This document shows, in pieces, positions 5,855 through 24,000 of a DNA stretch of 24,000 nt. The number at the start of each line of letters is the position of its first letter. The first letter of the stretch is position 1. The stretch spans positions 26,409-50,408 of the forward strand of contig JBCCGH010000020.1 in NCBI GenBank assembly GCA_039029375.1, in the 5' to 3' direction. Made by a program: the position numbers and the translations under genes. Under the pieces are notes generated by a model, which made no database searches, was not told the origin of the DNA, and was given only the letters and a program-made list of their open reading frames with translations. Source of the stretch: Planctomycetota bacterium (GTDB lineage: Bacteria > Planctomycetota > UBA1135 > UBA2386).

Positions 5855-5931
5855 GGTGGACGTAGCTCAGTTGGTAGAGCCCCGGGTTGTGATCCCGGTG
5901 GTCGCGGGTTCGAACCCCGTCGTCCACCCCA
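5855..5931 (+). tRNA. tRNA-His (anticodon GTG) with the extra 5' G(-1); likely prophage integration target
   Basis: G(-1) plus acceptor GTGGACG/CGTCCAC, then C73 and CCA. Anticodon stem CCGGG/CCCGG has loop TTGTGAT, and the T-loop is TTCGAAC. Base composition changes abruptly right after the CCA. Confidence 0.95.
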
Positions 5932-6027
5932 TTAAATCAAGGACTTAGGTCCTAACTAGGTGGTGCCAAGGATGGCAACATTTGGCAACAATGGTGTTTT
6001 GGTGCCATTTTTGGGCACCGGGTTGTT

Positions 6028-6294
6028 TTAGAGCGATTGGAGCCTCTCCAGCCCCGCCTTGAGTGCCTCGTTTTCCCGCGACAACGAGACCACCGTTTGC
6101 CTCAGTTCGTCCAGCTCCGCGAACAGTCGAGATACGGGAATCTTCTCCCGCTCAACCCGACCCCGGAACTCTCGAAGCGATCTCTCAGCAGCAGCCCGGC
6201 CGCGGGTCCCAGTGCTTATTCGGTGGCGAGTCCCGTCTTCATCAACCCAATGAATCAGGTAGTACCCGTCTCGGGCTCTTGGCTTCAAATGCAT
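6028..6294 (-). CDS. Stand-alone paralogue of the integrase N-terminal (arm-type DNA-binding) domain fused to a coiled coil; candidate directionality factor
   Basis: The 88-aa N-terminus MHLKPRARDGYYLIHWVDEDGTRHRISTGTRGR aligns with the integrase N-terminus MRLTPRARDGIYMLSFTDPTSGKRRRISTGKRDK. The C-terminal half has heptad-like leucines (LFAELDELRQTVVSLSRENEALKAGLERLQSL). Its ATG abuts the integrase stop (TAGATG). Confidence 0.65.
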   Translation of the reverse strand: MHLKPRARDGYYLIHWVDEDGTRHRISTGTRGRAAAERSLREFRGRVEREKIPVSRLFAELDELRQTVVSLSRENEALKAGLERLQSL

Positions 6295-7329
6295 CTATCG
6301 CCTCCTGTCCTCTAACTGGACGACCTCTCCGGTCGGTTTCTCCAGGCTCGCTGCCATGCCCTTCAGGGAGCTGGGCGCGAGATGCGCATAGCGCTCAGTC
6401 ACGTTGATGGTCGAGTGCCCCAGCCACTCCTTCACGAGGTAGAGATCGTGCCCGGCCTGAACCAGCCGGCTCGCGGTGGTGTGCCTGAGGGTGTGCAATG
6501 AGACATCCGGCAGCCCGGCCGCATTGCGGACCTTCGTGAACCTCTTCACGCACCACGACTTCGCACTGTCGCGCCGTGTGACGCTCGTGCGGACGCCTCG
6601 GGTGATCTCCAGCCACTCAGGGGTCACATGCAGACATCGCAGCGAGGCGGCCGCACGGGACGTCAGGGGCACGTTCCGGCTCTTGCCGTTCTTGGTGTCC
6701 TCCAGCCTCAGGTCGCCTCCTACGACGTCGCTGGGGCGGCTCTTGGTGATCTCCGAGAGTCGCGCGCCGGTGTCCAGCAGGACACACACGAGGTGATAGA
6801 TCGTAGGACTGATCTCCATCGCCTTGGCGAGGATGATCTGTTCCTCGTCGGCGTCGAGGTAGCGGACCTTGGTGTTGTTGACGGAGATGGTGGGGAAGGG
6901 AGGCTTGGAGGCGAGCTTGCGGCGCTTCACGGCGTGGTCAAGGGCGACCGACACGACGCCGAGGCGGGTGCGTATGGTGGCCGCCGCTAGGCCCTGCCCG
7001 CGTAGCTGGTTCACCCACTCCTCCAGCCAGATGTAGTCGATGGCTGTGCACTGCAACGAGCCGAACTGCTCGCGGATCACGCCGACGACATAGGAGAGCT
7101 GCTTGGCTCCCTTCTGCCGGTCCCACCGTGCGCGCCAGGTGTCGTCCAGCGCTTCCGCAAGGGTGTATCCGAGTGACGTCGAGCCCCGCCCGGCGAGAAT
7201 CTCCTGCGCGGCCAGTTGGGCCTCGCCCTTGTCCCGCTTTCCGGTGCTGATTCGGCGGCGCTTGCCGGACGTCGGGTCCGTGAAGGACAGCATGTAGATG
7301 CCATCCCGAGCCCGTGGTGTAAGCCTCAT
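6295..7329 (-). CDS. int: Tyrosine recombinase / phage integrase
   Basis: 344 aa with the catalytic signature: TGARLSEI (Arg), HTLRHTTASRLV (H-x-x-R) and GHSTINVTERYAHL (Tyr). A GGGAGGTGAGAC ribosome-binding site precedes the ATG. Confidence 0.95.
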   Translation of the reverse strand: MRLTPRARDGIYMLSFTDPTSGKRRRISTGKRDKGEAQLAAQEILAGRGSTSLGYTLAEALDDTWRARWDRQKGAKQLSYVVGVIREQFGSLQCTAIDYIWLEEWVNQLRGQGLAAATIRTRLGVVSVALDHAVKRRKLASKPPFPTISVNNTKVRYLDADEEQIILAKAMEISPTIYHLVCVLLDTGARLSEITKSRPSDVVGGDLRLEDTKNGKSRNVPLTSRAAASLRCLHVTPEWLEITRGVRTSVTRRDSAKSWCVKRFTKVRNAAGLPDVSLHTLRHTTASRLVQAGHDLYLVKEWLGHSTINVTERYAHLAPSSLKGMAASLEKPTGEVVQLEDRRR

Positions 7330-7332
7330 GTC

Positions 7333-7680
7333 TCACCTCCCGAGTATTCTCGTGATCTTGTTGGCGAGCTTCTCGCCGGTTTTGGTCAGGACCATCACCT
7401 TGCGGCGGCGATCCGAGTAGTCGGCCCGAGAGGTGACGAGGTCAAGTCCCGGTCGGTTCTTGTAGCTCCACTCGCCGATCGCGCCGAGAGCACGGCTACA
7501 GGCTGCCGAGGTGAGTCCGCTGGATTCCTGAAGGGCGCGGACGTCCACCTCTCTGTCCGTCGCCTGGGCTTCGGCGATGTGTAGAAACAACTGCACGTTG
7601 TGAAGAGGTGCTTCCCTCTCCATCTCCTCGCATAGCGTGTCGATCAGCTTCCTTGCTGTCTGTATATCTGACTTGTCCAC
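7333..7680 (-). CDS. MarR-like winged-helix transcriptional regulator
   Basis: 115 aa. The pattern VDVRALQESSGLTSAACSRALGAIGE ... SDRRRKVMVLTKTGEKL matches the MarR HTH plus wing (D-x-R-R-K ... LT-x-x-G). GTG start preceded by AAGGAG. It sits immediately upstream of int in the same operon. Confidence 0.65.
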   Translation of the reverse strand: MDKSDIQTARKLIDTLCEEMEREAPLHNVQLFLHIAEAQATDREVDVRALQESSGLTSAACSRALGAIGEWSYKNRPGLDLVTSRADYSDRRRKVMVLTKTGEKLANKITRILGR

Positions 7681-7724
7681 CAGTTTCGCTCCTTGGGGTC
7701 AGTCCGTGACTTCATATCTGCCAT

Positions 7725-7898
7725 TCAAGCGCGTTTTCCCTCACGCTTGCCATGAATTACGGAAAGTAGTAGGACACGCCTAAATGCGATCAATTCCCAC
7801 TCTCGGACTATACTGCCAGAATAATGACGACCTGTATATGTGGAACAATCGAACCAAACTTCGGCCGCTCCGGGCTCCAGATACCACTCGATCCGCAT
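7725..7898 (-). CDS. Possible small protein (57 aa), below the ORF-track size cutoff
   Basis: Hand translation gives MRIEWYLEPGAAEVWFDCSTYTGRHYSGSIVREWELIAFRRVLLLSVIHGKREGKRA. The ATG at 7898 is preceded by AGGAG 6 nt upstream. It is open for 57 codons in an AT-rich spacer where stops should be frequent. I recognise no homology. Confidence 0.3.
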   Translation of the reverse strand: MRIEWYLEPGAAEVWFDCSTYTGRHYSGSIVREWELIAFRRVLLLSVIHGKREGKRA

Positions 7899-7973
7899 GT
7901 GAAACTCCTGTTTCTTTCAGAAGTGATCTGCGATCCATCGCCTAGTCCTCTCACTTTGTTGACTCAATACATG

Positions 7974-8002
7974 AAAAAAAATAGGCACCCCGAAGGGGTG
8001 CC
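7974..8002 (-). terminator. Rho-independent terminator ending the long accessory operon
   Basis: The minus-strand RNA reads GGCACCCC-UUC-GGGGUGCC followed by UAUUUUUUUU, about 16 nt after the stop of the 401-aa gene. A second hairpin (ACACGCCG/CGGCGUGU) spans the stop codon itself. Confidence 0.85.
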
Positions 8003-8018
8003 CGGAAGACACGCCGGA

Positions 8019-9224
8019 TTACGGCGTGTTGTCGATGACGCGGTGGTTCGGGAAGCGGACCTCCGCCAGCGTCTCCCCTCCCTGGGGGCGCTCGTCAATC
8101 TGGTCGCGGTCGCACGGCGCGGTGCGCATGTCGTGCTCGGTGCCATCGATCATCTCGAAGTCCGCCCAAGTTGGCAGACCAGGGTAGAACCACAGCGCGA
8201 AGGCGTTGAAGTTCGCCAGAGAGGACCACTTGGTGTCCCGCCCGACGTCGTTCATCGAGGGAATCTGCTGGTCCCCCGTGGTGCCGTCGATGTGGTAGAA
8301 CCCGTATGTCTTCATCGCCTGAAGCAGCGTGCGGGTGTGCTCCGTGCCGACGCCGGTGACGTCGAAGTCGGCCCGCAGGCGGAACCGCGCGCCGTACGGC
8401 AGGAAGCCGCCGGTGTCGTACTGGAGCGGCGAATGCTGCCCCGGCTCGATGAACTTCCAGCCCTCAGGGACGTCGTTCGGGAGCGTCATGGCGACCGCGT
8501 GGTTGATCTCCTGCGCGGCGAAGTCCTCCGCCGTGACGACGAACGGGGCGTACTCCGCGCCCGCCGCGTTGGGAGACGTGCAGCCCAGCCCACGACCGAC
8601 ACTCGCGGCGCTTAGGTCGTAGATCGCGGAGTTGCCGATGGTGATCTGCGAGAAGTCGCCCGTCTCGTAGTTCTGGACGAGGTACAGCTCCCGAAGGACG
8701 GGCGCGGTCGGGTCGCTCAAGTCCACCACATAGAGGTGGTTGTCGGCGGACTGGCCGAACTCCTGCACGGCGAACGTCGGATGGTAAGGCACCTGAACGT
8801 AGTCACTGTGCGGGTCGTAAGGGCCGTCCAGGTTGTACCCACTGGGTACACCCCACGTCACCTCGCTGGCGATCTCCGGCGTGATGACGTTGACGATGTG
8901 CCCGTAGCGGCCTTCCTCGGTCGCCGTGTCCTGCGACAGGTTGAAGTCCAGCCGGGGGAACCAATACTGACCACCGGAGCCGTCGAGGCCCCAGTTGTGG
9001 TCCCGCACGAGCGCGGTCTGCATCTGCGCCATGATGGCTGCCGAGTTCGGGTGAACGGGAAGGTCCGTGACCGGCGTGTTGTACCAGCTATCGGGGTGTC
9101 CGATCGTGCGTGCCAGCGCGGCAGGCGGATCGGTCGGATCAATGGGAGTCCCGCCGGCTTCTTCCAGCAGGACATTCAGGCGAGCCACCAGTTCGTTGAT
9201 GGCGTTTACTCGTAGTGTGGTCAT
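8019..9224 (-). CDS. Hypothetical 401-aa protein, possibly a virion-associated or polysaccharide-active enzyme
   Basis: Long ORF with an ACGGAG ribosome-binding site. The short helical N-terminus (MTTLRVNAINELVARLNVLLEE) resembles the N-termini of the neighbouring large protein and of the second fibre protein. No catalytic motif is recognised with confidence. Confidence 0.75.
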   Translation of the reverse strand: MTTLRVNAINELVARLNVLLEEAGGTPIDPTDPPAALARTIGHPDSWYNTPVTDLPVHPNSAAIMAQMQTALVRDHNWGLDGSGGQYWFPRLDFNLSQDTATEEGRYGHIVNVITPEIASEVTWGVPSGYNLDGPYDPHSDYVQVPYHPTFAVQEFGQSADNHLYVVDLSDPTAPVLRELYLVQNYETGDFSQITIGNSAIYDLSAASVGRGLGCTSPNAAGAEYAPFVVTAEDFAAQEINHAVAMTLPNDVPEGWKFIEPGQHSPLQYDTGGFLPYGARFRLRADFDVTGVGTEHTRTLLQAMKTYGFYHIDGTTGDQQIPSMNDVGRDTKWSSLANFNAFALWFYPGLPTWADFEMIDGTEHDMRTAPCDRDQIDERPQGGETLAEVRFPNHRVIDNTP

Positions 9225-9238
9225 TGCGACTCCGTGGG

Positions 9239-11143
9239 TCAGGCTGCGGCGGGGGCTGCGCCGAGTTCGGTCCAGCGCGTGGGGAAGGCCATGAAGGCGT
9301 GGTCGGTTCCTTGGTCAGAGATGACCGCGAACCATGCGTCCTCCGAGGCGTACTTGACGCCCTGCGGCGTCTCGACTTCCTCGTTGGGGATGAGCACCGG
9401 GTGCGTCGCGCCGTGGCTGAAGTTCGTACCGCCGGGCGGGACAGTCGCCTCCGGCGTGACTCCGTCAGGATTCCACGGGTTCACCATGCAGGTGCCTTCC
9501 CAGTGGCGTGCAGTGCCGTTGTAGTAAGTGTTCTCGGGCCGCTGGAAGTCCAACATCTGACCGTATAGGCCCTGAAGCCCTTGGCCCATCTTGGCCGCGT
9601 CCCAGTCAGTGTGTGGGACGTATGGCTTGCCGTCGCTGGCCCGGACACCCGGCCGCGTGTAGCAGTCCGGCTGGCGGAAGCCAATGCCCGGCTGGGAATC
9701 AGCGAACGCGAGGATTTTCGCGGTGCGTGATGCGATGACGTCCGGGTCGCTGCCCAGTCCATTCGCGGGAAGTTGCAGCCAATATTCGCCGCCGCGCTGG
9801 TTGATCTCGCCAGTGAGGTCGAGAAGGTAGTCGAGGTAGCGATCGAAGCCGCTGTCAACGCCGATCGTGCCGGTGTTGTAGTTGGCGTCGTTGTAGGCGT
9901 TGTCCTGCGTGCTGCCGGGACTGCCGAGAGCCAGTTCGCCCTTGAAGCCGATGGACTCCACCATAGGTTGCGTATCGGCCCACTCCGCGAGGCGGATCGC
10001 CACGGCGCGGAAGCGATTGCGGACAACGGTGCCGGCGGGGGTCGTGTCCCACAGCCGCGCGAGGGCGCGGTTCTTGCCGGTGGTGCGAACGAACCAATGG
10101 ACTGAGTTCGGATCGCCAGCGAGGTCCGACGGGACCGCCATGATGGGGTTCGACGGAGTCTCAGGGAAGACACCCGCGAACTGGTTGTTGGCCTGCGGAT
10201 CAACAACGACGGACACGAGGTAGCCGCTGTCGATGTATGCCTGAATGACACCCGTGAACAGCTCGTTCGGGACGCGCTCAAGCTCGCGCCAGTTGAACCG
10301 GAGGCGGACGCCCTTGACGTAGGGCAACCAGCGATCCTCGGCGTACCATCGGCTTGAGATGCGAGCCAGGGTTTCCTCATAGGTGGGGAAGTCGAGGCTG
10401 CCCCAGTTGGTCTCACCGTTGGCCCAAAGGCCGGGGTTCCAGCGGAAGGTTCGCGGGCCGCCGCCGACTGGGACTTCCGCCACCGGCGCGGTCGGATCGG
10501 AGCTGAGACTCTCGGCGTTCCCTTGGCCGTCGGTGAAGGCGGTAGACACGCGGAGCGCTTGGCCGACATCCGCCGCTGAAGTCTGATAGCTCGCCGCAGT
10601 CGCGCCGGAGATCGGCGTCGAGTCGGTCGCGCCATACCACCACTGGTAGCTCAGCGGGCCGACGCCTTCGGCGTCCTGCGCGTCTACCGTGGCGGTCAGA
10701 AGGACGCCGGCGGTGGGGTTCAGGTCGTCAATGGTGACGGTCCCGGTGGCAGGCGTGTTCTCGCGACTAACGGGCGCAGTGTCGGCCGACTCACGGACGT
10801 AGGCGTTACCCTGGCCGTCGGTGAAGCTCGCAACCACGCGCAGCGCGAAGCCTTCGTCAGAGGGCATCACTACATACGTCGAGGCGGTGCCGCCGGGGAT
10901 GTCTTGGCCGGCTCGTTGCCAGCGGTAGGTGATACCGGCGGGGATACCGTCGGGATCGTAGATGGTCGAAATAACGGACAGCGTTTCGCCTACGCGTGGG
11001 GCGGTGTTGCTGACCCGCACGGTGCCGGTCGGAAGGGTATCTCCGATGGGATCAGGTGCCGGGTTCGACTCACTGTAGATGTCAGTGCGTCGGAGTTGCC
11101 GGAGAATCCCAAGCACCTCTAGGTTGAGGTCTCGATTGGACAT
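9239..11143 (-). CDS. 634-aa protein with two tandem Ig-like repeats and a large C-terminal enzyme-like domain; candidate tailspike or depolymerase
   Basis: Two internal repeats of about 85 aa are visible (GTVRVSNTAPRVGETL...YRWQRAGQDIPGGTASTYVV...FTDGQGNAYV and GTVTIDDLNPTAGVLL...YQWWYGATDSTPISGATAASYQT...FTDGQGNAESL). About 400 aa of non-repetitive sequence follow. The enzyme function is inferred, not shown. Confidence 0.75.
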   Translation of the reverse strand: MSNRDLNLEVLGILRQLRRTDIYSESNPAPDPIGDTLPTGTVRVSNTAPRVGETLSVISTIYDPDGIPAGITYRWQRAGQDIPGGTASTYVVMPSDEGFALRVVASFTDGQGNAYVRESADTAPVSRENTPATGTVTIDDLNPTAGVLLTATVDAQDAEGVGPLSYQWWYGATDSTPISGATAASYQTSAADVGQALRVSTAFTDGQGNAESLSSDPTAPVAEVPVGGGPRTFRWNPGLWANGETNWGSLDFPTYEETLARISSRWYAEDRWLPYVKGVRLRFNWRELERVPNELFTGVIQAYIDSGYLVSVVVDPQANNQFAGVFPETPSNPIMAVPSDLAGDPNSVHWFVRTTGKNRALARLWDTTPAGTVVRNRFRAVAIRLAEWADTQPMVESIGFKGELALGSPGSTQDNAYNDANYNTGTIGVDSGFDRYLDYLLDLTGEINQRGGEYWLQLPANGLGSDPDVIASRTAKILAFADSQPGIGFRQPDCYTRPGVRASDGKPYVPHTDWDAAKMGQGLQGLYGQMLDFQRPENTYYNGTARHWEGTCMVNPWNPDGVTPEATVPPGGTNFSHGATHPVLIPNEEVETPQGVKYASEDAWFAVISDQGTDHAFMAFPTRWTELGAAPAAA

Positions 11144-11194
11144 TACGCAATGTTTCCTTTTGGGAAAAGGAGGGGAGGGTTCGGACGAGTGGTT

Positions 11195-11288
11195 GCCTCA
11201 TCAGCGACCGGGGACCACCCGGCCGGACGCTCACACCCCCGAAGTCAGCGAAACTTCTAGGAGGGCGTGGGGGCGTGAGCGTTTCGGC
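11195..11288 (-). ncRNA. Hammerhead ribozyme, type II topology (stem II open)
   Basis: Minus-strand RNA from 11288 to 11195 reads GCC-GAA-ACGCUCACGCCCCC-[ACGCCCUCCUA GAAGU UUCGCUG ACUUC]-GGGGGUGUGAGCGU-C^CGGCCGGG-UGGUC-CCCGGUCG-CUGAUGA-GGC. The full core is present: CUGAUGA, GAA, the A15.1-U16.1 pair, the G10.1-C11.1 pair and C17 in a GUC triplet. Stem III has 14 bp and stem I has 8 bp. The open stem II has only 3 bp (GGC/GCC). Confidence 0.8.
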
Positions 11289-11289
11289 T

Positions 11290-11484
11290 TTACTGATAGT
11301 CCTCCACCAGCTCGCCATCAGCGTCGAAGATAGCTGCGGCGTGTAGAGGAGAGTTGGAGTAGGCGAGGGCGGCTCCATGAGCGAGCGTGTGGTGATCGAA
11401 TACACCTTCGAGCGTGATCGAGTTGTCGGTGTCCACCGGAGCATGGGCCAGGCGGACCTTCACGGTGTAGGACGTGGGGTTCAT
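11290..11484 (-). CDS. Hypothetical 64-aa protein
   Basis: ORF with a GAGGAGAA ribosome-binding site upstream of the ATG. Its TAA stop lies 2 nt before the type II hammerhead. Confidence 0.6.
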   Translation of the reverse strand: MNPTSYTVKVRLAHAPVDTDNSITLEGVFDHHTLAHGAALAYSNSPLHAAAIFDADGELVEDYQ

Positions 11485-11577
11485 CGTGCAGTTCTCCTCG
11501 TGTGTTCAACTTCAAGTAATTCATCCGGTTGACTTTCGGTTTCCCTGAGCCACCGGAGGAGTGCGGAGATTTGGCAG

Positions 11578-11859
11578 TTAGTCATTGAAAACCACCTCGC
11601 CGTTGTCGTCGTAGCGCTTAAGGGTTTCTTGAAGTTCGCCGTAGGTGGGCATTGAGTCTCCGGTCGCGTTGCCTAGTTCTTCGTGGAGCCTTGCCCCAAG
11701 AAGCGATAAGCTATGCCGGCTAGCCTGCCCGCTACACCTATCGATACTGGTGAGGTAGTCGCCCACCGCACAAGTGCTCCACATGGCATGATTAATACGG
11801 CACGCTGGCGGCTGCGCGTTCACGAACTCACGGAAGCCCGCAAGGGTTGGTTCAGTCAT
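11578..11859 (-). CDS. Hypothetical 93-aa protein
   Basis: Its ATG overlaps the stop of the pentapeptide-repeat gene (ATGACTGA, an 8-nt overlap), implying translational coupling. Confidence 0.6.
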   Translation of the reverse strand: MTEPTLAGFREFVNAQPPACRINHAMWSTCAVGDYLTSIDRCSGQASRHSLSLLGARLHEELGNATGDSMPTYGELQETLKRYDDNGEVVFND

Positions 11860-12604
11860 CGTCTTGTCCCTCCTGCGCTTCTAGCTTGGTCTTCAGCCAT
11901 TCCACCGCATAGACGTACATGTCGCCTATCGCACGGTCGCCTACGTAGCCCCTGCCCCAATGGTCGAGTGCTTCGGGGATCGTGAAATCTCGGCAGCCAG
12001 ACCGGATGCGGTACTCGCCGTCGATTTCTACCGCGTGCGGGAAGGCGTACCCGCGAGGGTCTTGAAGGGGTAGCAGATAGAAGCCTTTTGCATCGATCAG
12101 GTTTGCACCGCGCAGGTTTGCATCGATCAGGTTTGCACCGATCAGGTTTGCACCGCTCAGGCTTGCATCGCTCAGGCTTGCATAGCGCAGGTTTGCACCG
12201 CGCAGGTTTGCATCGCTCAGGCTTGCATAGCGCAGGTTTGCACCGCGCAGGTTTGCATAGCGCAGGTTTGCACCGCGCAGGTTTGCATCGCTCAGGTTTG
12301 CATCGCTCAGGCTTGCACCGCTCAGGCTTGCACCGCTCAGGAGTGCACCGCTCAGGCTTGCATAGCGCAGGCTTGCATAGCGCAGGTTTGCACCGCGCAG
12401 GCTTGCACCGCTCAGGCTTGCACCGCTCAGGAGTGCACCGCTCAGGCTTGCATAGCGCAGGCTTGCATAGCGCAGGTTTGCACCGCGCAGGTTTGCATCG
12501 CGCAGATCTGAACCGCTCAGGTCTGCACTGCGTAGGTTTGCACCGCGCAGGTCTGCATCGCGCAGGTTTGCATCGGGGCCTATGTCATATCCGTTAACTT
12601 TCAT
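11852..12604 (-). CDS. Pentapeptide-repeat protein with a non-repeat C-terminal domain
   Basis: About 32 consecutive A(D/N)LxX pentapeptides (ANLRDADLRGANLRSADLSGSDLRDANLRGANLRYASL...). The C-terminal domain follows (GFYLLPLQDPRGYAFPHAVEIDGEYRIRSGCRDFTIPEALDHWG). I start it at ATG 12604 (MKVNGYDIG), preceded by GAGGAG, not at the TTG at 12622. Confidence 0.9.
   Translation of the reverse strand: MKVNGYDIGPDANLRDADLRGANLRSADLSGSDLRDANLRGANLRYASLRYASLSGALLSGASLSGASLRGANLRYASLRYASLSGALLSGASLSGASLSDANLSDANLRGANLRYANLRGANLRYASLSDANLRGANLRYASLSDASLSGANLIGANLIDANLRGANLIDAKGFYLLPLQDPRGYAFPHAVEIDGEYRIRSGCRDFTIPEALDHWGRGYVGDRAIGDMYVYAVEWLKTKLEAQEGQDDD
12311..12490. repeat. Perfect 90-bp tandem duplication inside the pentapeptide-repeat gene
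   Basis: Base-by-base comparison shows 12311-12400 is identical to 12401-12490. Each copy encodes 30 aa, which is six pentapeptide units. It lies within a 15-nt periodic coding repeat spanning about 12088-12570. Confidence 0.95.
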
Positions 12605-12707
12605 CGTCTTGTTTCTCCTCAAGTCGTCGTAACGTGACCTTCACCAGCACCCCCAACGCGATCAGCGCGAGGATGCCGGGGAGGTGTTGGATTAGTTGTG
12701 CTGTCAC
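12594..12707 (-). CDS. Possible 37-aa single-pass membrane peptide, not in the ORF track
   Basis: Hand translation gives MTAQLIQHLPGILALIALGVLVKVTLRRLEEKQDDES. The GTG start sits immediately after the upstream TAA (TAAGTG), and the 3' end overlaps the pentapeptide-gene ATG by 11 nt. There is no clear Shine-Dalgarno. The call is supported mainly by analogy to the three membrane-peptide genes at 16.1-16.9 kb. Confidence 0.3.
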   Translation of the reverse strand: MTAQLIQHLPGILALIALGVLVKVTLRRLEEKQDDES

Positions 12708-13190
12708 TTACAGCGTTGCATTCGCCAGGACGGCCCCACGCCGCTCACCACCCGCGACAAACTCCCGCACGAACTTGCGTTGGTCTGTAGGAAACCGCCC
12801 ATGGCGGTTGTGGTAGATCGACTGTCCGGCTGTGTCGGCAGTGATGATTGCGGCCGCTTCGTCGGCGAACACACCAAGACTGTCGAGAACGCGCCGGGCG
12901 TGTTCGCTGGCGGTTGCTATCTCGCCCTCGAAGTCAGTGCCATAGTCGTGGGCAAGGTGAATAGCGTCATGCCACGCGCGAAAGGCGACGTTAGTTGCGC
13001 GGTCGCGGTAGATGGTTTGCTCGCAGTGGTCGCCGCTTACGGGCAGCGAATCAACACCTAGGATGTTGCCCTCGTCTCGCCATGCTTTGAGTTCAGCAAA
13101 CGTGTCCGGCGCATTGGGTGAAATGTGATGCTTAGGCGCTTGCGCGTGGATGAACTGTTCAAGCGCCTGTAGTGCTGTTTGTGGTCGCAT
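12708..13190 (-). CDS. Hypothetical 160-aa protein
   Basis: I start it at ATG 13190 (MRPQTALQALEQF...), which has AGGAGG 8 nt upstream. The ORF-track start at 13211 lacks a ribosome-binding site. It is the first cistron after the type III hammerhead. Confidence 0.7.
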   Translation of the reverse strand: MRPQTALQALEQFIHAQAPKHHISPNAPDTFAELKAWRDEGNILGVDSLPVSGDHCEQTIYRDRATNVAFRAWHDAIHLAHDYGTDFEGEIATASEHARRVLDSLGVFADEAAAIITADTAGQSIYHNRHGRFPTDQRKFVREFVAGGERRGAVLANATL

Positions 13191-13223
13191 TGAGTTGCCC
13201 TCCTGAGGCATTCGGTCTGTGCT

Positions 13224-13274
13224 GACGTTTCGTCCTTTCGGACTCGTCAGGCCCGGTGCACACCGGACGACGTC
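13224..13274 (-). ncRNA. Hammerhead ribozyme, type III topology (stem III open)
   Basis: Minus-strand RNA from 13274 to 13224 reads GACGUC^GUCCGGU-GUGC-ACCGGGC-CUGACGA-GUCC-GAAA-GGAC-GAA-ACGUC. All conserved core nucleotides are present: C3 U4 G5 A6 N7 G8 A9, G12 A13 A14, A15.1-U16.1, G10.1-C11.1 and C17 in GUC. Stem I has 7 bp, stem II has 4 bp with a GAAA tetraloop, and stem III has 5 bp. Confidence 0.85.
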
Positions 13275-13333
13275 GAGTGTCCCGCAAGTGAAGCACTACG
13301 GGACATGTGGAAGTAGATGGACGCGGCTATGCC

Positions 13334-13756
13334 TCAGCGAACCCAGTAGGTAACACCGTCGAAATCAATCGCTGAGTAATCGTATTGAAGATGCTGCGCG
13401 GCACGCGTCCAATCAATGCAGTTGTTCGGCCACGTCACATTGCTATCAATCAGGCCGCAGTCTTCCGCAAGCTGCTCTGCGTACTCTTCAAAGTAGCTAT
13501 CTCGAACCAGCGCTTCGCCGTGTACCCAGTCTGCCGCGTAGTCTTCGCCCTCGGCGGCGAGCGCTTCGAGCGCATCCAGTTCGCACCCTTCGTCGGTGTG
13601 GGCGTTGTGCCAGTCCACCTCGGGAGCCATATCAAACTCGCCACCGTTCTCCACGACTTCGTCAATCCAGTCGTCCCGAATTTCGCGGAGTTCTTCGATA
13701 CGCTCAATAACGTCGCGGCTATCAATCACGTCGTCCATGTTGGAAATTGCGTTCAT
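13334..13756 (-). CDS. Highly acidic ArdA-like protein (putative antirestriction DNA mimic)
   Basis: 140 aa from ATG 13756, which has a GGAGGT ribosome-binding site, and very rich in Asp/Glu. The C-terminal part YFEEYAEQLAEDCGLI...CIDWTRAAQHLQYDYSAIDFDGVTYWVR resembles, from memory, the ArdA C-terminus (...YFDYEAYARDLFLDSFTFIDGHVFRR). The N-terminal half does not resemble ArdA domain 1. Confidence 0.55.
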   Translation of the reverse strand: MNAISNMDDVIDSRDVIERIEELREIRDDWIDEVVENGGEFDMAPEVDWHNAHTDEGCELDALEALAAEGEDYAADWVHGEALVRDSYFEEYAEQLAEDCGLIDSNVTWPNNCIDWTRAAQHLQYDYSAIDFDGVTYWVR

Positions 13757-13968
13757 GCTGCTACCTCCGCGCGTCGTAATTCCGACCGCCACGCCTGTCC
13801 GCGCCAGCCGTCTTGGGCCTCGATCTCGTACATACCCTCGCCTTCGTAATCGAACTCATCCTTTCTAAGACGCCGCAGAACGCTGATGCGCTTGCCGCGA
13901 TGCGCGTTGTACTCAGGCAGGGATGTGAATCCCTCGGGGTAGTCGAATATGTAGTCGAATTTCCTCAT
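13753..13968 (-). CDS. Hypothetical 71-aa protein
   Basis: An AGGAGGG ribosome-binding site precedes the ATG. Its stop overlaps the ArdA-like start (ATGA). It is the first cistron after the long leader. Confidence 0.6.
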   Translation of the reverse strand: MRKFDYIFDYPEGFTSLPEYNAHRGKRISVLRRLRKDEFDYEGEGMYEIEAQDGWRGQAWRSELRRAEVAA

Positions 13969-13969
13969 C

Positions 13970-14021
13970 GTGTTTCGCCCTCCTAAGGCACATCAGTACG
14001 GCTGGAAGTAGCCGCAGACAC
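13970..14021 (-). ncRNA. Hammerhead-like motif (type III architecture) with U instead of A at core position 9
   Basis: Minus-strand RNA from 14021 to 13970 reads GUGUC^UGCGGCU-ACUUCC-AGCCGUA-CUGAUGU-GCC-UUAGGAG-GGC-GAA-ACAC and is followed by G-AUG of the 71-aa gene. Stem I has 7 bp, stem II has 3 bp with the Shine-Dalgarno in its loop, and stem III has 4 bp. GUC, GAA and the A15.1-U16.1 pair are all present. Only A9 deviates (plus-strand base 13990). Confidence 0.45.
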
Positions 14022-14224
14022 TTTCCCGCAGCCGCTGTCACTATCCGTCCTGATGTGGACATGTGGAAGTGTCGGCGCGGGCCTCGGTGTGTGTCGCTGA
14101 ACGCCTCGCCTGCTAGGGTTCGCAGGGTCTCAGGGTGCGGACTCTTTTTGACTGTGGACCGGCTGGGTCGCTGCGCTGTCTCGGGGAGTCGTTCCGATGC
14201 GCCGTTAGTGGCGACTTAAAGAAA

Positions 14225-14253
14225 AGCTTAAATAATTCCACATGCAGTGTCAA
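14225..14253 (-). promoter_or_regulatory. Sigma70-type promoter flanked by CATGTGG(T/A)A operator-like repeats
   Basis: On the minus strand, TTGACA (14253-14248) is followed by a 17-nt spacer and TAAGCT (14230-14225). CATGTGGTA lies immediately upstream of the -35 box and CATGTGGAA lies inside the spacer. Confidence 0.5.
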
Positions 14254-14283
14254 TACCACATGCGGAATTAATTAAGATTCTCC

Positions 14284-14790
14284 CTAGCGAGTCGCTACCA
14301 GGCTGCCGATGGCGTTGCCGCCTACGCCGGTCACTACGTGAGACACACGCGCTACAGTGAGCGCGTGGTGTAGTGTGGTACCGGGTTTCCTCATGCGCCT
14401 CGTGCAGGCCGCCCATTGACTCTTAGAGAGACCATAGCGCTCTCGGAGTTCAACGGAGGTGATCGTATCGCCGGGCTTCATGGTCTCGATGTGGGACGCT
14501 ATGAGGTCCGAGGGGCCGCCTTTGCGAGCACGCGGGATGTGCTGTAAGGGGCTGGTAGGTGGCGGCTCTGCGGCCATTACTGGAACTCCCACGGACGAAT
14601 CGACGGAGCCAGTAGAGTTGTTGCCTACAGCAATGTCGTAGATGTTGTGGAGGTCAAACCAGAGCATGTCCGTGTCTATCGGACGCTGCTCGTCTTCTGC
14701 ATGAAGGTTGCGTATGTACGCTGAGATTGTCGCTAAGCGTTGTGCGGGAGACAGGGATGGAGAAGGGCGCAGGGTTGCGTAAGTGTTCAT
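14284..14790 (-). CDS. Hypothetical 168-aa protein with a possible C-terminal helix-turn-helix
   Basis: ORF downstream of the 14854-14882 promoter. The segment ITSVELRERYGLSKSQWAACTRRM looks HTH-like. The ribosome-binding site is weak (TAGGA). Confidence 0.55.
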   Translation of the reverse strand: MNTYATLRPSPSLSPAQRLATISAYIRNLHAEDEQRPIDTDMLWFDLHNIYDIAVGNNSTGSVDSSVGVPVMAAEPPPTSPLQHIPRARKGGPSDLIASHIETMKPGDTITSVELRERYGLSKSQWAACTRRMRKPGTTLHHALTVARVSHVVTGVGGNAIGSLVATR

Positions 14791-14853
14791 GGTGTTGGTC
14801 CTAAGTTGCCGGGCAACGCCCCGGAGCGCGTGACTTTCCTAAGCCACGAGAGA

Positions 14854-14882
14854 ACCATACTCCCTACGTTTTGTTATGTCAA
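14854..14882 (-). promoter_or_regulatory. Sigma70-type promoter
   Basis: On the minus strand, TTGACA (14882-14877) is followed by a 17-nt spacer and TATGGT (14859-14854). It lies in an AT-rich spacer directly upstream of the 168-aa gene. Confidence 0.55.
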
Positions 14883-14887
14883 GCATA

Positions 14888-15088
14888 TCAAATATCTTTT
14901 TCCACGGCGGAGTTGAGCCGGGCAGTCACCCACTCGGCTAGCTTCATGTTTTCTGCCTTGGCTGCCCTAGTCCACGCCACTTTTTCCTCGTGAAGGCATC
15001 GGACATATAGCGTTGAACTGCGGCGTTCCTCAGGCGGCTTCTTAGCGTTCTGGTTGCCGGTGTTCCCGTGCTGCTTTGAGTCATCCAT
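14888..15088 (-). CDS. Small ribbon-helix-helix-like DNA-binding protein (candidate regulator)
   Basis: 66 aa. A basic N-terminal tail is followed by a beta-strand/helix/helix pattern (STLYVRCLHEEKVAWTRAAKAENMKLAEWVTARLN), reminiscent of Arc/CopG-type folds. A candidate own promoter has TTGCGG (15155-15150), a 16-nt spacer and TATTAT (15133-15128). Confidence 0.5.
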   Translation of the reverse strand: MDDSKQHGNTGNQNAKKPPEERRSSTLYVRCLHEEKVAWTRAAKAENMKLAEWVTARLNSAVEKDI

Positions 15089-17488: not shown

Positions 17489-19207
17489 CTACCGCCTTCT
17501 GCCCCGCCTTCGGGCCTTTCCTACGGTGTTGCTGAAGACTCCACCGGCCCTGCACACGGAGGCGTGCCGGGCGAGTTCCTCGGCAAGGAGCTTCGCCTTG
17601 CGGGCGTCTTCCTGCTGCTCGGTGTCCACTCGGAGCCGCGACTGCCAGTACCCCACGGCCTCCGCCAGCACATCCACCCGGTCGTCATGTCGGAGAGACT
17701 GGCGGTCCTTGGTGATGTGGCTAAGCTGGTACAGTCCCGTCTTGGCGGTACGCTCGGCGTCGCTGTTCTGGAGCGCCACGCGGGAGTCGATCACGAGCCG
17801 ATGCTGATTTAGCACGGGCTCCAGCTTGTCGATGATCCTCCGCTCCTTCTGGCCCGTGACGGTGTACTCCTCAACGTGACATGGGTAGATGCTCGCCAGC
17901 ACGGGCTCGAAAAGCGCCTGGTACATGCCGGCACCGAAGTTCTTCTCGACCCCGATGTGGTTCACCCCGTGCTTCTTGGCGATCTTTGCCAGTGCTTCGA
18001 GGGTGTCCCGATCGTAGCCACCTTCCAGGCCGCCCCAGGCGATGAGGTACAGCATCGAGTTGAGCTGCTTGATGACCGCGTAGGCGGTCTCGTCTTCGCC
18101 GGTGCCGGATGGGTCGATGTGCATGGAGCACCCCTGGTACGGCACGAAGTCCTCGCTGCTGACCCACATAGGGCGGTGCAGCCGGTCGCCGTTCAGGCCG
18201 ACGTTGGGGATGTGCTCCACGACTTGCTGCGGCCCGGAGGCCCAGCTCATCTGGACGGGGCCGTTGGTGGGGTCCACGTCCATGCAAAGTAGGTCGGAGA
18301 TTCTTAGGGGGTACTTCAGGGCGTCACTGAGCGACGTGTCGAGCATGAACTGCAAGGCGAACCCTGAGCGCCCGTAGGACGTCTCGCGCTCGGCGAGGTC
18401 CATGTCGCTGAAGCGCGCCGGCTCGGTGGTGGTGCCAGCTAGCTCAGGCCGCTTCCCGAGCATCTGTGTGATGATCGGGGCCAGCCTTCCGTGGTACTTA
18501 TCGATGCCGTCAACGAAACCGTTGGTGAACCTCGCGGGCCACACGCGGACCTCGTAGCCGCGATCGGCGAGGTCGTTGTAGAGCGATTGCTCCACCTGAG
18601 GCGTGCCGAGGTAGACCACCTGTCCGCCCGGCTTCAGGACCGCGTCGAATTCCTTCACGAGGTCGCCGAGCTTCTCTCGCTGCTGCTCGGTGGCAGAGTT
18701 CGAGGGAACCTCGATGTCGTCCGCCACGATCGTGTCGGCACGGGAGCCAGTGAGCTGGCCGGTGATTCCGACTGACTTCACGGAGGGCGACTGGTCCGGG
18801 CGGGCCGGGCCGACGTCGAAGGAGACGTTGGACGTCCGCTGCTCATCCCGTGGTTCCAAGAATCGCAGGAACTCCACATCCGAGATGAGCCGCTTACAGA
18901 AGATCGAGAAGTCGTCCGCGCGCTTCTGCGAGGCCGAGACCACCATGATCTTCTGCTGCGGATCGCGGTACAACAACCACAAAACGTATGCGGCCGTGAT
19001 CCATGACTTGCCCACGCCCCGGAAGGCTTCGATGATGCGCCGCCTCGGGCCGTGCTGGAGGTACTCCCCGATGTCCGCCTGAATCCAGGTCAGCTTCGGT
19101 AGCCCGAGGTGCATCCAGATTGCCGAGGCGAACATGATGAAGCTGTCATGCATCCGCTTCTCGGACGGCTGAATGACCCATTCCGGGTACTTAGACGGTC
19201 TCGACAT
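17489..19207 (-). CDS. terL: Terminase large subunit (T7 gp19 / DNA maturase B type)
   Basis: 572 aa. It has a Walker A-like AFRGVGKSWITAAYVLW and long stretches matching T7 gp19 as I recall it (SFDVGPARPDQSPSVKSVGITGQLTGSRAD, DDIEVPSNSAT, YLGTPQ, GFALQFML and DPSGTGEDETAY). Confidence 0.95.
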   Translation of the reverse strand: MSRPSKYPEWVIQPSEKRMHDSFIMFASAIWMHLGLPKLTWIQADIGEYLQHGPRRRIIEAFRGVGKSWITAAYVLWLLYRDPQQKIMVVSASQKRADDFSIFCKRLISDVEFLRFLEPRDEQRTSNVSFDVGPARPDQSPSVKSVGITGQLTGSRADTIVADDIEVPSNSATEQQREKLGDLVKEFDAVLKPGGQVVYLGTPQVEQSLYNDLADRGYEVRVWPARFTNGFVDGIDKYHGRLAPIITQMLGKRPELAGTTTEPARFSDMDLAERETSYGRSGFALQFMLDTSLSDALKYPLRISDLLCMDVDPTNGPVQMSWASGPQQVVEHIPNVGLNGDRLHRPMWVSSEDFVPYQGCSMHIDPSGTGEDETAYAVIKQLNSMLYLIAWGGLEGGYDRDTLEALAKIAKKHGVNHIGVEKNFGAGMYQALFEPVLASIYPCHVEEYTVTGQKERRIIDKLEPVLNQHRLVIDSRVALQNSDAERTAKTGLYQLSHITKDRQSLRHDDRVDVLAEAVGYWQSRLRVDTEQQEDARKAKLLAEELARHASVCRAGGVFSNTVGKARRRGRRR

Positions 19208-19328
19208 GCGGATTAATCCTCAGATATGGGGATAGCAGCTCCGCACGCCCGGTCTCAGCCGTTTTTCAGGCGATCGAGTAGTAGCGGGTGGGTCAGACTT
19301 GGAGGGGCTCTACGGGGCTCTCAGGAGG

Positions 19329-19604
19329 TCAGTGGGCTTGGCCCTCGAATTCCATCAGGTCCTTCGCGTTGGCCGGCAGCAGCTCCGAGAGCTTGTCCTC
19401 GACGTCTTCGTCGCGGCCAGGACGGTCCACGCCGTTGTCCTTGAGGAACTTGATGGCGGCCGCGAGGATGCTTGCGGGCACCGGGAGAGGGTTCCCTTCC
19501 TTGTCCACATGCTCGCCGGCGGAGTACGCCTTGATCTCGTTAATGAGGGTCTGAGCGGCGAGTCCGTGCAGCGCGTCCATCAGCTCTTCTGTGGCTTTAC
19601 TCAC
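19329..19604 (-). CDS. terS: Terminase small subunit (T7 gp18 position and size)
   Basis: 91 aa, immediately upstream of terL as in T7, where gp18 is about 89 aa. The GTG start has a GGAGG ribosome-binding site and overlaps the upstream stop (GTGAGTAA). Assignment is mainly by position and size. Confidence 0.6.
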   Translation of the reverse strand: MSKATEELMDALHGLAAQTLINEIKAYSAGEHVDKEGNPLPVPASILAAAIKFLKDNGVDRPGRDEDVEDKLSELLPANAKDLMEFEGQAH

Positions 19605-19794
19605 GGCCGGCCTCCATGTACTTCACGATGAGATCGAGCTTCGCGTTGATCGCGGCGACTTGCGCCGGCAACGATTCGAGCCTCTCGACGTCCTTCTCCA
19701 GGTTCGCGATGCGGGTGCGGTGCGCGCCCCAGCCAGCACCGCCGGCGAGTAGACCGGCGATGATCGTGTAGGCGGATTCAAACTGCTCGAACAT
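19597..19794 (-). CDS. Small membrane protein, holin-like (T7 gp17.5 position); an i-spanin-like role is not excluded
   Basis: 65 aa from ATG 19794, which has an AGGGAGG ribosome-binding site 5 nt upstream and a TGATG overlap with the upstream stop. One TM segment (AYTIIAGLLAGGAGWGA) is followed by a coiled-coil-like tail. The TTG start at 19818 in the track lacks a ribosome-binding site. Confidence 0.45.
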   Translation of the reverse strand: MFEQFESAYTIIAGLLAGGAGWGAHRTRIANLEKDVERLESLPAQVAAINAKLDLIVKYMEAGRE

Positions 19795-21059
19795 CAGCGC
19801 CTCCCTGCGATTCGGCAATGGGTGTCGGCGGGTATGATCGTCACGGTGTTCGCTGCGATCGTCTCGTTGGAGTCAATCATCAGGAGAGCCAGCGGGACCC
19901 AGCCGGAGTTGAACTCGGGGTTCTTGTGCTCAGACCGCCACCACTCCGGCAGCGCGCTCTCAGCGGCCACCGCCCCGGTGTTATGCGAGACGGCTCCGAG
20001 CTGGACCGCGAGGGTCCCGTCGGAGACCTTCATCCAGATGGCCTTGACGTCGGCGTTGTTGCCGCCGTTGCTGCCCCGAGAGCCGCCGTTGTCGTAGTCC
20101 GGTTGCACGGAGGAGAACAGCTCGGTTGCGCCACTGTTCAGCGCCGCGCCGGTCCTCAGGTAAACCTGGAACGCCGTCGGGTCTGCGGGCGTGATCGCCT
20201 GCTCCTGCCAGTCGCTCCCGTCCCAGTGATGCAGGGAGCCGGGGAGGACCGCCACGTCGGAGCCGGAGACAACCACGTCTAGACCTTGGCGCACATAGGA
20301 GAGCGCTGCTGAGATTTCGTCAGGGATACCGCCGGCGTCGGCGTGAGTGTGCCCGAGGGCGGAATACACCGCGTCGTGGTTGTGCCCTGAGTCGGCGTAG
20401 GTGCCGTCGTGGTTGTGCGTGCCCGCCGCAAACCCAGTGTGCGTGTGTGCGACGTCGGCATAGTCCGCGTCATGGTCGTGATCGGCTGAGGCGAAGTCGC
20501 CGTCGTGAACGTGACTGATCGACGCGTACTCCGCGTGAACGTGGCCCGTCTCCGAGTAGATTCCCGCATGGTCATGCGCCAGCGCCGCGTAGGCCGCGTC
20601 GTGATCGTGTGCGATCGCGGAGTAGTCTGCGTCGTGATTGTGATCGCCGCCCGGCGGGTGAACGTGCCCAATCCCCGCGTAGCGGAGATCAAAGACCGGG
20701 GTGTGATCGTGATCGGAGAACGCGTAGACATCGTCGTGGTGGTGCGCATAGGCCGCATAGAGATCGTCGTGAACGTGCTCCACCGGGGCATGAATCCCGG
20801 CGTGGTCGTGCGCCTTCGCCGCGTATGCGTCGTTGTGGTTGTGTACCAAGCGCGCGTACCGGATGTCATGCTGGTGATCGCGGTCCGCATATTGATCCGC
20901 GTGCGAGTGACCGAGCTTCGAGAAGACGATGTCCAGGGGCGGCTGGGGTGAGCCAGCCGTGATCCCTGCGTTCCAGGCTTCGATGACTTCCACCGCATCG
21001 CGGTAGCGCTGAAGGAGGTCGTTGAGCTGTGCTGCCAGCTCGGCGTTCGATACGTCCAT
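19794..21059 (-). CDS. Second tail-fibre protein with 18 His-x-His repeats and a C-terminal globular domain
   Basis: 421 aa. Residues about 50-240 carry 18 HxH motifs at a period of roughly 10-11 residues (GHSHADQYA, DHQHDIRYA, VHNHNDAYA, AHDHAGIHA, EHVHDDLYA ... GHTHADAGG). The start overlaps the stop of the gp17-like fibre gene (TAATG). Confidence 0.8.
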   Translation of the reverse strand: MDVSNAELAAQLNDLLQRYRDAVEVIEAWNAGITAGSPQPPLDIVFSKLGHSHADQYADRDHQHDIRYARLVHNHNDAYAAKAHDHAGIHAPVEHVHDDLYAAYAHHHDDVYAFSDHDHTPVFDLRYAGIGHVHPPGGDHNHDADYSAIAHDHDAAYAALAHDHAGIYSETGHVHAEYASISHVHDGDFASADHDHDADYADVAHTHTGFAAGTHNHDGTYADSGHNHDAVYSALGHTHADAGGIPDEISAALSYVRQGLDVVVSGSDVAVLPGSLHHWDGSDWQEQAITPADPTAFQVYLRTGAALNSGATELFSSVQPDYDNGGSRGSNGGNNADVKAIWMKVSDGTLAVQLGAVSHNTGAVAAESALPEWWRSEHKNPEFNSGWVPLALLMIDSNETIAANTVTIIPADTHCRIAGRR

Positions 21060-23317: not shown

Positions 23318-23385
23318 TGAGTGGTCTCCGAGGGAATAGGGACGCCCGGCCTTGCACCGGGCGAGGAGAGGAGCCTGGGGAAGGC

Positions 23386-24000
23386 TCAGGGGGAGGGGGA
23401 GGGGGAGTTGCCGCGCAGCAGTTCAGCAGCGCGGACTTTGCGGTCGCGGATGCGCGCAGCGAGGTCGGGGTACTCCGCCAGCAGCCGCCGCTTGGCGAGG
23501 CTCTTCGCGCCGGAGTAGATCGCCTTGAGCTGCGCCTCTTTGCCGCCCGTGTCGAAGTCCGACTCGGTAGCGTTGCGGTACGCGGGCGTCTGTATGTGCG
23601 CCCGCAGGAGGTCCTCCAGCGTGCGTCCACCGAACTGCTCGTAGCGCTCCTGCCCGATGAACTTCAGGAAGTCCGAGCGCTGCCTAGTGGTGAGATTCAC
23701 ACCGTCCAGCGAAGCGGGGATCGGAGAGAAGTCGTAGGAGAGTCGCGCGAGTTCCTGATCGAGTGGGTCGTCAGATTCCGCCGAGGAGGCGAAGGGATTG
23801 ATCCAGTGCCATTGGTGGTTCTGACGGACGATCTCTCGGCCGAGGTAGTCGCGGATCGGGGGAAGCTCTGAGGATTCGCCGGGTATTCCGCGAGAGAGCC
23901 GCTCACTGATCTCCTGCGCCTGCCGGACCACCGGGTCCTGCGTCTGCGCTACGCTGCGGAACAGCGAGGAGAACGGCACGAGCTTGTTGAGCTGGTCGCC
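23386..24000 (-). CDS. C-terminal part of a large virion protein (T7 gp16 position, internal virion protein); 5' end lies outside the window
   Basis: The reading frame is open to the window edge (GDQLNKLVPFSSLF...), so the M in the ORF track is an internal GTG. Function is assigned only from its position immediately upstream of the gp17-like fibre gene. Confidence 0.45.
   Translation of the reverse strand, partial: GDQLNKLVPFSSLFRSVAQTQDPVVRQAQEISERLSRGIPGESSELPPIRDYLGREIVRQNHQWHWINPFASSAESDDPLDQELARLSYDFSPIPASLDGVNLTTRQRSDFLKFIGQERYEQFGGRTLEDLLRAHIQTPAYRNATESDFDTGGKEAQLKAIYSGAKSLAKRRLLAEYPDLAARIRDRKVRAAELLRGNSPSPSP

Follow-up and report, generated by a model that had tools for sequence, protein, structure and literature searches.

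The minus strand at positions 11289-11189 is a genuine and complete type II hammerhead ribozyme by sequence and structure, located in a prophage of a Planctomycetota MAG (locus tags AAF628_08245 to _08260). Positions refer to the window, i.e., the whole stretch of 24,000 nucleotides that was analyzed. Very probably, the RNA folds with a pseudoknot and cleaves itself after C11226, thereby splitting a polycistronic prophage mRNA. A preliminary description had given the extent as 11195-11288, which located the element correctly but lacked A11289 and the tail to 11189; the functional element is 11289-11189 and thus extends past those limits. Its parts are listed below; the two strands of stem II and the pseudoknot tail were read from the sequence, and the two core segments from the sequence together with the RF02276 match.

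11289-11189, minus strand: complete type II hammerhead ribozyme with its conserved 5' A and 3' pseudoknot tail (Rfam RF02276 and phage-derived model R1)
11286-11288, minus strand: stem II, 3' strand GCC (11.3-11.1), paired with GGC at 11197-11195
11283-11285, minus strand: core G12 A13 A14
11227-11282, minus strand: stem III hairpin, 14 bp (11282-11269/11240-11227) with A15.1-U16.1 at its base
11226/11225, minus strand: predicted cleavage site GUC^C, with C17 at 11226
11205-11225, minus strand: stem I hairpin, CGGCCGGG (11225-11218) paired with CCCGGUCG (11212-11205) over 8 bp, loop UGGUC (11217-11213)
11198-11204, minus strand: core C3 U4 G5 A6 U7 G8 A9 (CUGAUGA)
11195-11197, minus strand: stem II, 5' strand GGC (10.1-10.3)
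11189-11193, minus strand: pseudoknot tail ACCA(C), paired with loop I (G11218)U11217 G G U11214

The 5' part of the minus-strand RNA reads UAA (11292-11290), A11289, GCC (11288-11286), GAA (11285-11283), ACGCUCACGCCCCC (11282-11269), a distal segment of 28 nt (11268-11241), GGGGGUGUGAGCGU (11240-11227) and C17 (11226). The 3' part reads C11226^CGGCCGGG (11225-11218), UGGUC (11217-11213), CCCGGUCG (11212-11205), CUGAUGA (11204-11198), GGC (11197-11195) and AACCACUCGU. All 13 conserved core positions (C3 U4 G5 A6 N7 G8 A9, G12 A13 A14, A15.1-U16.1 and H17, i.e., not G) and the pair G10.1-C11.1 are present, with CUGAUGA at 11204-11198, GAA at 11285-11283, the pair A11282-U11227 and C11226. The three-way junction has the topology of type II, a circular permutation in which loops close off stems I and III and stem II is open: stem I (8 bp) and stem III (14 bp) are capped, and stem II (3 bp) is open. 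The complete core, the topology and the GUC site are therefore found where the preliminary description had placed them, and the predicted cut between 11226 and 11225 follows, as it had proposed, from alignment to the hammerhead core.

The 14 pairs of stem III are contiguous and include one G-U pair, as had been described. Its distal 28 nt comprise an 11-nt 5' bulge, ACGCCCUCCUA (11268-11258), and a hairpin of 5-6 bp (11257-11241); the latter is the GAAGU/ACUUC hairpin of the preliminary description and has 6 bp according to RNAfold. The length of stem I was also given correctly as 8 bp, but one G-U pair within it had been left out. The stop codon TAA occupies 11292-11290, with the G of GCC two bases further on, in agreement with the described start 2 nt after a stop, but the element proper starts at A11289, a position conserved in 90% or more of the relatives. 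The bulge of stem III contains the motif CCUCC, and CCUCUUCC-like motifs were observed in several relatives with a long stem III.

The type II covariance model of Rfam (RF02276), to which the preliminary description had pointed for the minus strand, yielded 42.8 bits at 11289-11187 on that strand, above the curated gathering score of 37, with an E-value of 8e-6 for a search of the whole window against all 4227 families. A second covariance model, R1, was built from 70 type II hammerheads of IMG/VR phage contigs with the window sequence left out; it scored 55.5 bits (E 2e-12) over 11289-11185, and its next-best match anywhere in the window reached 9.9 bits. A strict, hand-written type II descriptor, which, besides stems of a minimum length, demands the core motifs together with U16.1 and H17, found 185 elements in 1.2 Mb of phage DNA and two in the reversed-sequence control (both strands). 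The region is GC-rich and folds strongly (z = -4.6), as would be expected if the element resembled a hammerhead by chance, or were a plain intrinsic terminator or stability hairpin without ribozyme ancestry. This explanation is nevertheless scarcely credible: the two E-values and the two false positives of the descriptor per 1.2 Mb, counted on both strands, rule out chance resemblance, and the terminator reading was rejected because neither hairpin is followed by a U-run and a terminator scan found nothing at the element.

Relatives of the element provide evidence at the level of the family. The pattern AGCCGAAAC...GTC...CTGANGAGGCA, which fixes no stem bases, was found in at least 120 IMG/VR stretches and in seven with a long stem III. 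Both stems (at least 5 contiguous pairs) form in 117 of 140 unique pattern matches, compared with 0 after shuffling of the inserts. An alignment of 70 relatives showed double-sided changes in 16 of 18 pairs; the number of cells with both sides changed was 355, compared with 100 +/- 9 in shuffles and 59-112 with slid partners, and the observed stem covariation score of the relatives was reached by none of 500 shuffles. Covariation of stems and pseudoknot is thus strong at the level of the family.

The surroundings of the relatives are regular in some respects. Relative to the stop codon of the upstream ORF, 76% of 178 phage copies have their 5' end between -6 and +1 nt (the window copy is at -1); overlap of this stop codon with the conserved 5' AG is frequent in phage type II hammerheads. 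A Shine-Dalgarno sequence and start codon follow in 162 of the 178 relatives, at a median of 27 nt past stem II, compared with about 51 nt in the window copy. The genes on either side of the relatives are of diverse function and short, with medians of 94 aa downstream and 113 aa upstream; the 634-aa gene downstream of the window copy exceeds both the downstream median and the 90th percentile of 227 aa. A common function of the downstream genes was sought, but 141 downstream proteins fell into 54 PHROG families, none with more than three members, and a shared downstream partner gene was therefore rejected. Up to nine copies per contig stretch occur in the IMG/VR loci L001-L003 and L027-L152. 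The window copy has the longest contiguous stem III among 185 relatives, although other variants with a long stem III exist.

Loop I of the element (U11217 G G U11214) pairs with A11193 C C A11190, and together with G11218-C11189 this gives a pseudoknot of 4-5 bp. A pseudoknot between loop I and the 3' tail was recognized by Perreault et al. 2011 (PMC3088659) as the tertiary contact that belongs to the type II consensus; mutation and compensation showed it to be needed for fast cleavage at physiological Mg2+, and a longer stem II to be harmful in this type (PMC3088659). Among 178 relatives, pairing of the loop with its own tail has a mean of 4.74 bp, compared with 3.67 +/- 0.06 bp with tails swapped, and a pseudoknot of at least 5 bp is present in 108 of them, compared with a mean of 37.7 (maximum 52) over 500 tail permutations. 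Stem II has exactly 3 bp in 173 of 185 relatives. The preliminary description was thus right about the 3 bp of the open stem II, but not in treating this length as a shortcoming, because 3 bp is the norm of the family and the pseudoknot of loop I with the 3' tail compensates for it.

For RNA prefixes ending at 11205, 11198, 11195 and 11189, the minimum-energy fold is the hammerhead secondary structure. With 4 nt more transcribed (to 11185), the nested minimum-energy fold of 11292-11185 switches to an alternative consisting of an 8-bp CGGGUGGU/ACCACUCG helix and a GCCG/CGGC helix, with -55.3 kcal/mol compared with -50.9 kcal/mol for the hammerhead fold without a pseudoknot term. The tail complementarity of 8 bp reaches 4 bp into stem I. 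Since the alternative is the more stable of the two and tail invasion this far is rare (2 of 178 relatives), some molecules could be trapped in an inactive form. A simple estimate assigns about -2.5 to -5.2 kcal/mol to the pseudoknot duplex, which would make the two folds roughly equal in energy. The predicted folding agrees with cleavage during transcription and leaves a smaller probability for a kinetic trap or a switch.

The same calculations bear on whether the hammerhead is a constitutive cutter or a conformational switch in which the tail helix and the GCCG/CGGC helix compete with the active fold. A switch would restrict cleavage to a brief interval during transcription or couple it to translation of the ORF upstream, and stem II, together with the base of stem III, would be covered by a ribosome that terminates at the adjoining UAA. 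The advantage of 4.4 kcal/mol of the alternative nested fold over the pseudoknot-free hammerhead fold, the invasion of stem I at the extreme of the family, and a stop codon 1 nt from the ribozyme, an arrangement common to three quarters of the relatives (76%), are in keeping with a switch. We regard it as unlikely, however: the energy of the pseudoknot largely levels the two folds, the three or four extra pairs could be due to chance, the tight packing of stop codon, ribozyme and Shine-Dalgarno sequence may merely reflect compaction of the phage genome, and no ligand or protein partner is indicated. Equally improbable, in our estimate, is a gated ribozyme in which the 8-bp tail complementarity and GCCG/CGGC would give the inactive fold and in which stem II and the lowest part of stem III would be opened by the terminating ribosome.

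The ribozyme with its stabilizing pseudoknot lies within an operon on the minus strand of the prophage, for which the following features were recorded.

6295-7329, minus strand: prophage integrase
7333-7680, minus strand: prophage regulator
7983-8003, minus strand: strong intrinsic-terminator-like hairpin, GGGCACCCC-TTC-GGGGTGCC followed by T8, right after the gene of a 401-aa protein
9239-11143, minus strand: downstream 634-aa gene with N-terminal Ig-like repeats, starting 45 nt past the pseudoknot tail
11290-11484, minus strand: upstream 64-aa gene with coding-like codon-position GC (0.66/0.40/0.72), its TAA abutting the ribozyme
13224-13274, minus strand: canonical type III hammerhead with a predicted cut after C13269, checked by hand and with a descriptor
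13970-14021, minus strand: type III hammerhead-like element with the core variant A9->U (CUGAUGU), Rfam 27.3 bits (gathering score 48.5)
14854-14882, minus strand: sigma-70-like promoter candidate upstream of the operon, from a consensus scan only

In coordinate order, host DNA with tRNA-Pro, tRNA-Arg and tRNA-His is followed by the prophage, whose minus strand carries the integrase, the regulator, the terminator, the 401-aa and 634-aa genes, the type II hammerhead and a series of small genes that extends to about 15090. Beyond these are the large terminase, tail fibres and internal virion protein (17489-23979), in a T7-like late gene order. The hairpin at 8003-7983 lies between the operon with the hammerheads and the genes of the regulator and integrase, the integrase being about 4 kb downstream of the type II hammerhead. 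The prophage is integrated beside tRNA-His (5856-5931).

A 120-aa ORF (11082-11444) that overlaps the type II element was rejected as a gene (codon-position GC 0.52/0.65/0.60, non-coding). Since the 64-aa ORF looks coding and the overlapping 120-aa ORF does not, the type II element is intergenic; an independent gene call on an identical Logan contig likewise placed no protein gene between the 64-aa and 634-aa genes. The locus tag AAF628_08255 falls between _08250 (634-aa) and _08260 (64-aa), so the public record may already annotate a non-protein feature at the ribozyme. The leader of the 634-aa gene contains a hairpin, UCCUUUU-CCC-AAAAGGA (11155-11171, minus strand), that would sequester its Shine-Dalgarno sequence and is preceded by a pyrimidine-rich CCCUCCCCUCC tract. 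In the improbable case of a gated ribozyme, the CCUCC bulge of stem III and this hairpin could tie cleavage to translation of the flanking genes.

The preliminary description had referred to two large enzyme-like genes on the downstream side, a characterization that no family search supports. The 634-aa protein yielded only Ig-like repeats, with no match beyond about 180 aa of these, the 401-aa protein received no assignment in family searches, and PADLOC assigned the downstream genes to no defence system. Homologues of the 401-aa protein (44-49% identity; loci L154-L158) are found in T7-like DNA-metabolism/replication modules, where they adjoin DNA polymerase A, 5'-3' exonuclease and endonuclease I and have no hammerhead nearby; because these modules are without a hammerhead, the ribozyme is not linked to the 401-aa gene. 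By analogy with such neighbors, an enzymatic role for the 401-aa protein is possible. On two contigs, its homologue directly follows an ECF-sigma-like gene.

The block of small genes upstream of the ribozyme includes a 256-aa pentapeptide-repeat protein (11852-12622, minus strand; Pfam E 6e-62, with weak Qnr/MfpA-type matches), the gene of which consists of about 30 tandem 15-nt repeats; this protein may be an anti-host factor of the DNA-mimic type. GC3 is 0.80-0.87 in the two large downstream genes and the integrase, compared with 0.61-0.72 in the small upstream genes (genes at 8019-11143 compared with those at 11290-15088, minus strand). The ribozyme therefore sits at a compositional boundary, which is possibly a junction of modules of different origin.

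The type II element is accompanied in the operon by a canonical and a variant type III hammerhead, all three intergenic and on the minus strand; the prophage thus has at least two hammerheads on one strand that flank genes or short blocks near an integrase, the multi-hammerhead arrangement of prophages described by Perreault et al. 2011 (PMC3088659). The canonical type III element (13274-13224) lies in the gap between a 152-aa and a 167-aa gene and consists of GACGUC^, a 5-bp stem III, a 7-bp stem I (loop GUGC), CUGACGA, GUCC-GAAA-GGAC, GAA and ACGUC. With Rfam it scores 23.9 bits, below the gathering score of 48.5, and is therefore missed by scans at the gathering threshold. It was found by a type III descriptor that gave 5 matches in 1.2 Mb and 1 in the reversed control.

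In the variant element (14021-13970), stem II holds the Shine-Dalgarno sequence AGGAGG of a 71-aa gene, of which the ATG at 13968 comes 1 nt after the end of the element. The activity of this element is doubtful. Loop I of this element (UACUUCCA) could pair with the AGGAGG. The 152-aa gene between both type III elements (13334-13792) weakly matches an anti-restriction family in PHROG; with this as the only match and none in Pfam or PDB, its identification as ArdA was rejected. An exact 14-nt repeat, ACTTCCACATGTCC, occurs twice on the minus strand (14057-14070 and 13301-13314), each time about 25-35 nt upstream of a type III element, and with up to 3 mismatches it has 5 matches in the window, compared with 1.3 expected by chance; it may be a promoter, operator or anti-SD-like motif. 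Just upstream of the first hammerhead-like element is an AT-rich, near-perfect palindrome (14218-14285) with TTGACA-like hexamers, probably an operator or promoter region, which gave spurious microRNA-family matches on both strands.

An orthologue of the type II locus was found in none of the collections searched (phage records, IMG/VR, proteins, genomes and metagenomes). Megablast of 10000-12500 against 50,697 phage records yielded no match, and a protein-guided IMG/VR search with the 634-aa gene yielded no relative. Full-length homologues of the 64-aa and 634-aa proteins were absent from the databases searched: among 5.8 billion proteins, an Ig-like stretch was all that the 634-aa protein had in common with others, and the sole match of the 64-aa protein was itself (AAF628_08260). 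The two pattern scans of metagenomes found either nothing or no more than an identical copy of the viral locus L002. A scan of genome contigs with GTGGT..CTGATGAGGC..ACCAC, a pattern that specifies the structure too loosely and the sequence too strictly, gave 23 loci, all of them chance matches in coding sequence and none a hammerhead. The only other contig with these genes is from Logan SRR22824298 and is identical to window positions 5870-12192; its ends lie within the tRNA-His gene (5870) and within the pentapeptide repeats (12192).

Because no orthologous copy was found, the covariation evidence applies at the family level only. The lack of an orthologue that would show purifying selection at the locus would also suit an inactive relic, a descendant of a hammerhead that no longer cleaves and is at most a stable intergenic hairpin, and the A9U substitution in the sibling at 14021-13970 makes decay of hammerheads in the phage conceivable. 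In a relic, however, damage to the core or the stems would be expected, whereas every core nucleotide, all three stems and the pseudoknot of the type II element are intact, and we consider this explanation very improbable.

The preferred reading is that of an active ribozyme. The minus-strand transcript of 11289-11189 would fold as a type II hammerhead, with the open 3-bp stem II held by the 4-5 bp pseudoknot of loop I and 3' tail, and would cleave itself after C11226 via internal transesterification. By this cut, a polycistronic prophage mRNA that starts near 14880 and reaches the terminator near 7990 would be divided in two. The small genes would be on the upstream product, which would end in the 14-bp stem III bearing a 2',3'-cyclic phosphate, and the 634-aa and 401-aa genes on the downstream product, which would begin with a 5'-OH on the stem I hairpin. 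We infer self-cleavage after C11226 from experiments on other members of the family (PMC3088659, PMC8782182). The role of the element is likely to be co-transcriptional cutting of polycistronic phage mRNA. That the hairpins would protect the new RNA ends is a reasonable inference. As a hypothesis only, the cut might uncouple the stability or translation of the small-gene block from that of the 634/401-aa block; such a role has likewise been proposed for phage hammerheads but is unproven (PMC3088659, PMC6765202), as their biological purpose still is in the literature (PMC6765202).

A 2011 paper (PMC3088659) had already described type II hammerheads along with their pseudoknot, as well as groups of hammerheads in the vicinity of prophage integrases. 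The present analysis adds a well-supported hammerhead in a Planctomycetota prophage and an example of hammerheads clustered near a prophage integrase, with type II and type III in one operon. Genome annotation pipelines that use Rfam would flag the type II element. The regularities of the family (starts at stop codons in 76%, a Shine-Dalgarno sequence and start codon about 27 nt further on, and small, diverse flanking genes) could guide work on function. Should the improbable gating by a terminating ribosome be true and general, type II hammerheads, 76% of which start at a stop codon, would be translation-sensing punctuation of phage operons, and the long-sought function of bacterial hammerheads would take a testable form.

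Early polycistronic mRNA of phage T7 is processed by RNase III. With these sites the type II element shares, as a functional analogy only, an intergenic cut, an operon of small genes and a stable hairpin on the upstream 3' end; it differs in that self-cleavage is predicted in place of a cut by a host enzyme and in the end groups. The late genes of the window prophage are also in a T7-like order (internal virion protein, tail fibres, large terminase).

The prophage of Agrobacterium tumefaciens has triple hammerheads that flank ardA near marR and an integrase (PMC3088659, Figs 3, S2, S3), and hammerheads of Agrobacterium, Azorhizobium and Clostridium prophages cleave in vitro and in vivo (PMC3088659). 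Common to the A. tumefaciens arrangement and the window are up to three elements within about 2.8 kb on one prophage strand, single genes or short blocks flanked by them, and tail genes on one side with a regulator and integrase on the other. In contrast, the elements in the window are two of type III and one of type II, include one with A9U, and flank genes in which Pfam did not detect ardA.

Type II hammerheads near phage genes of Desulfovibrio vulgaris are active in vivo according to cyPhyRNA-seq (PMC8782182). They resemble the window copy in their position beside hypothetical or phage-like genes and in their products with 2',3'-cyclic phosphate and 5'-OH, which for the window are predicted; they differ in the organism and the flanking genes and in a 5' fragment of 29-32 nt (minimal length), compared with 64 nt in the window.

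Within the family RF02276 (PMC3088659), the window copy stands apart by a stem III of 14 bp with bulge and distal hairpin (56 nt, compared with roughly 12-25 nt typically), by the tail complementarity reaching 4 bp into stem I, by the 634-aa downstream gene (median 94 aa) and by its host, a Planctomycetota MAG. It shares with the family the core, the topology, the very short open stem II, the loop I/3'-tail pseudoknot of at least 4 bp, and the 5' AGCCGAAAC and 3' CUGAUGAGGCA signatures, which were found in at least 127 IMG/VR contigs.
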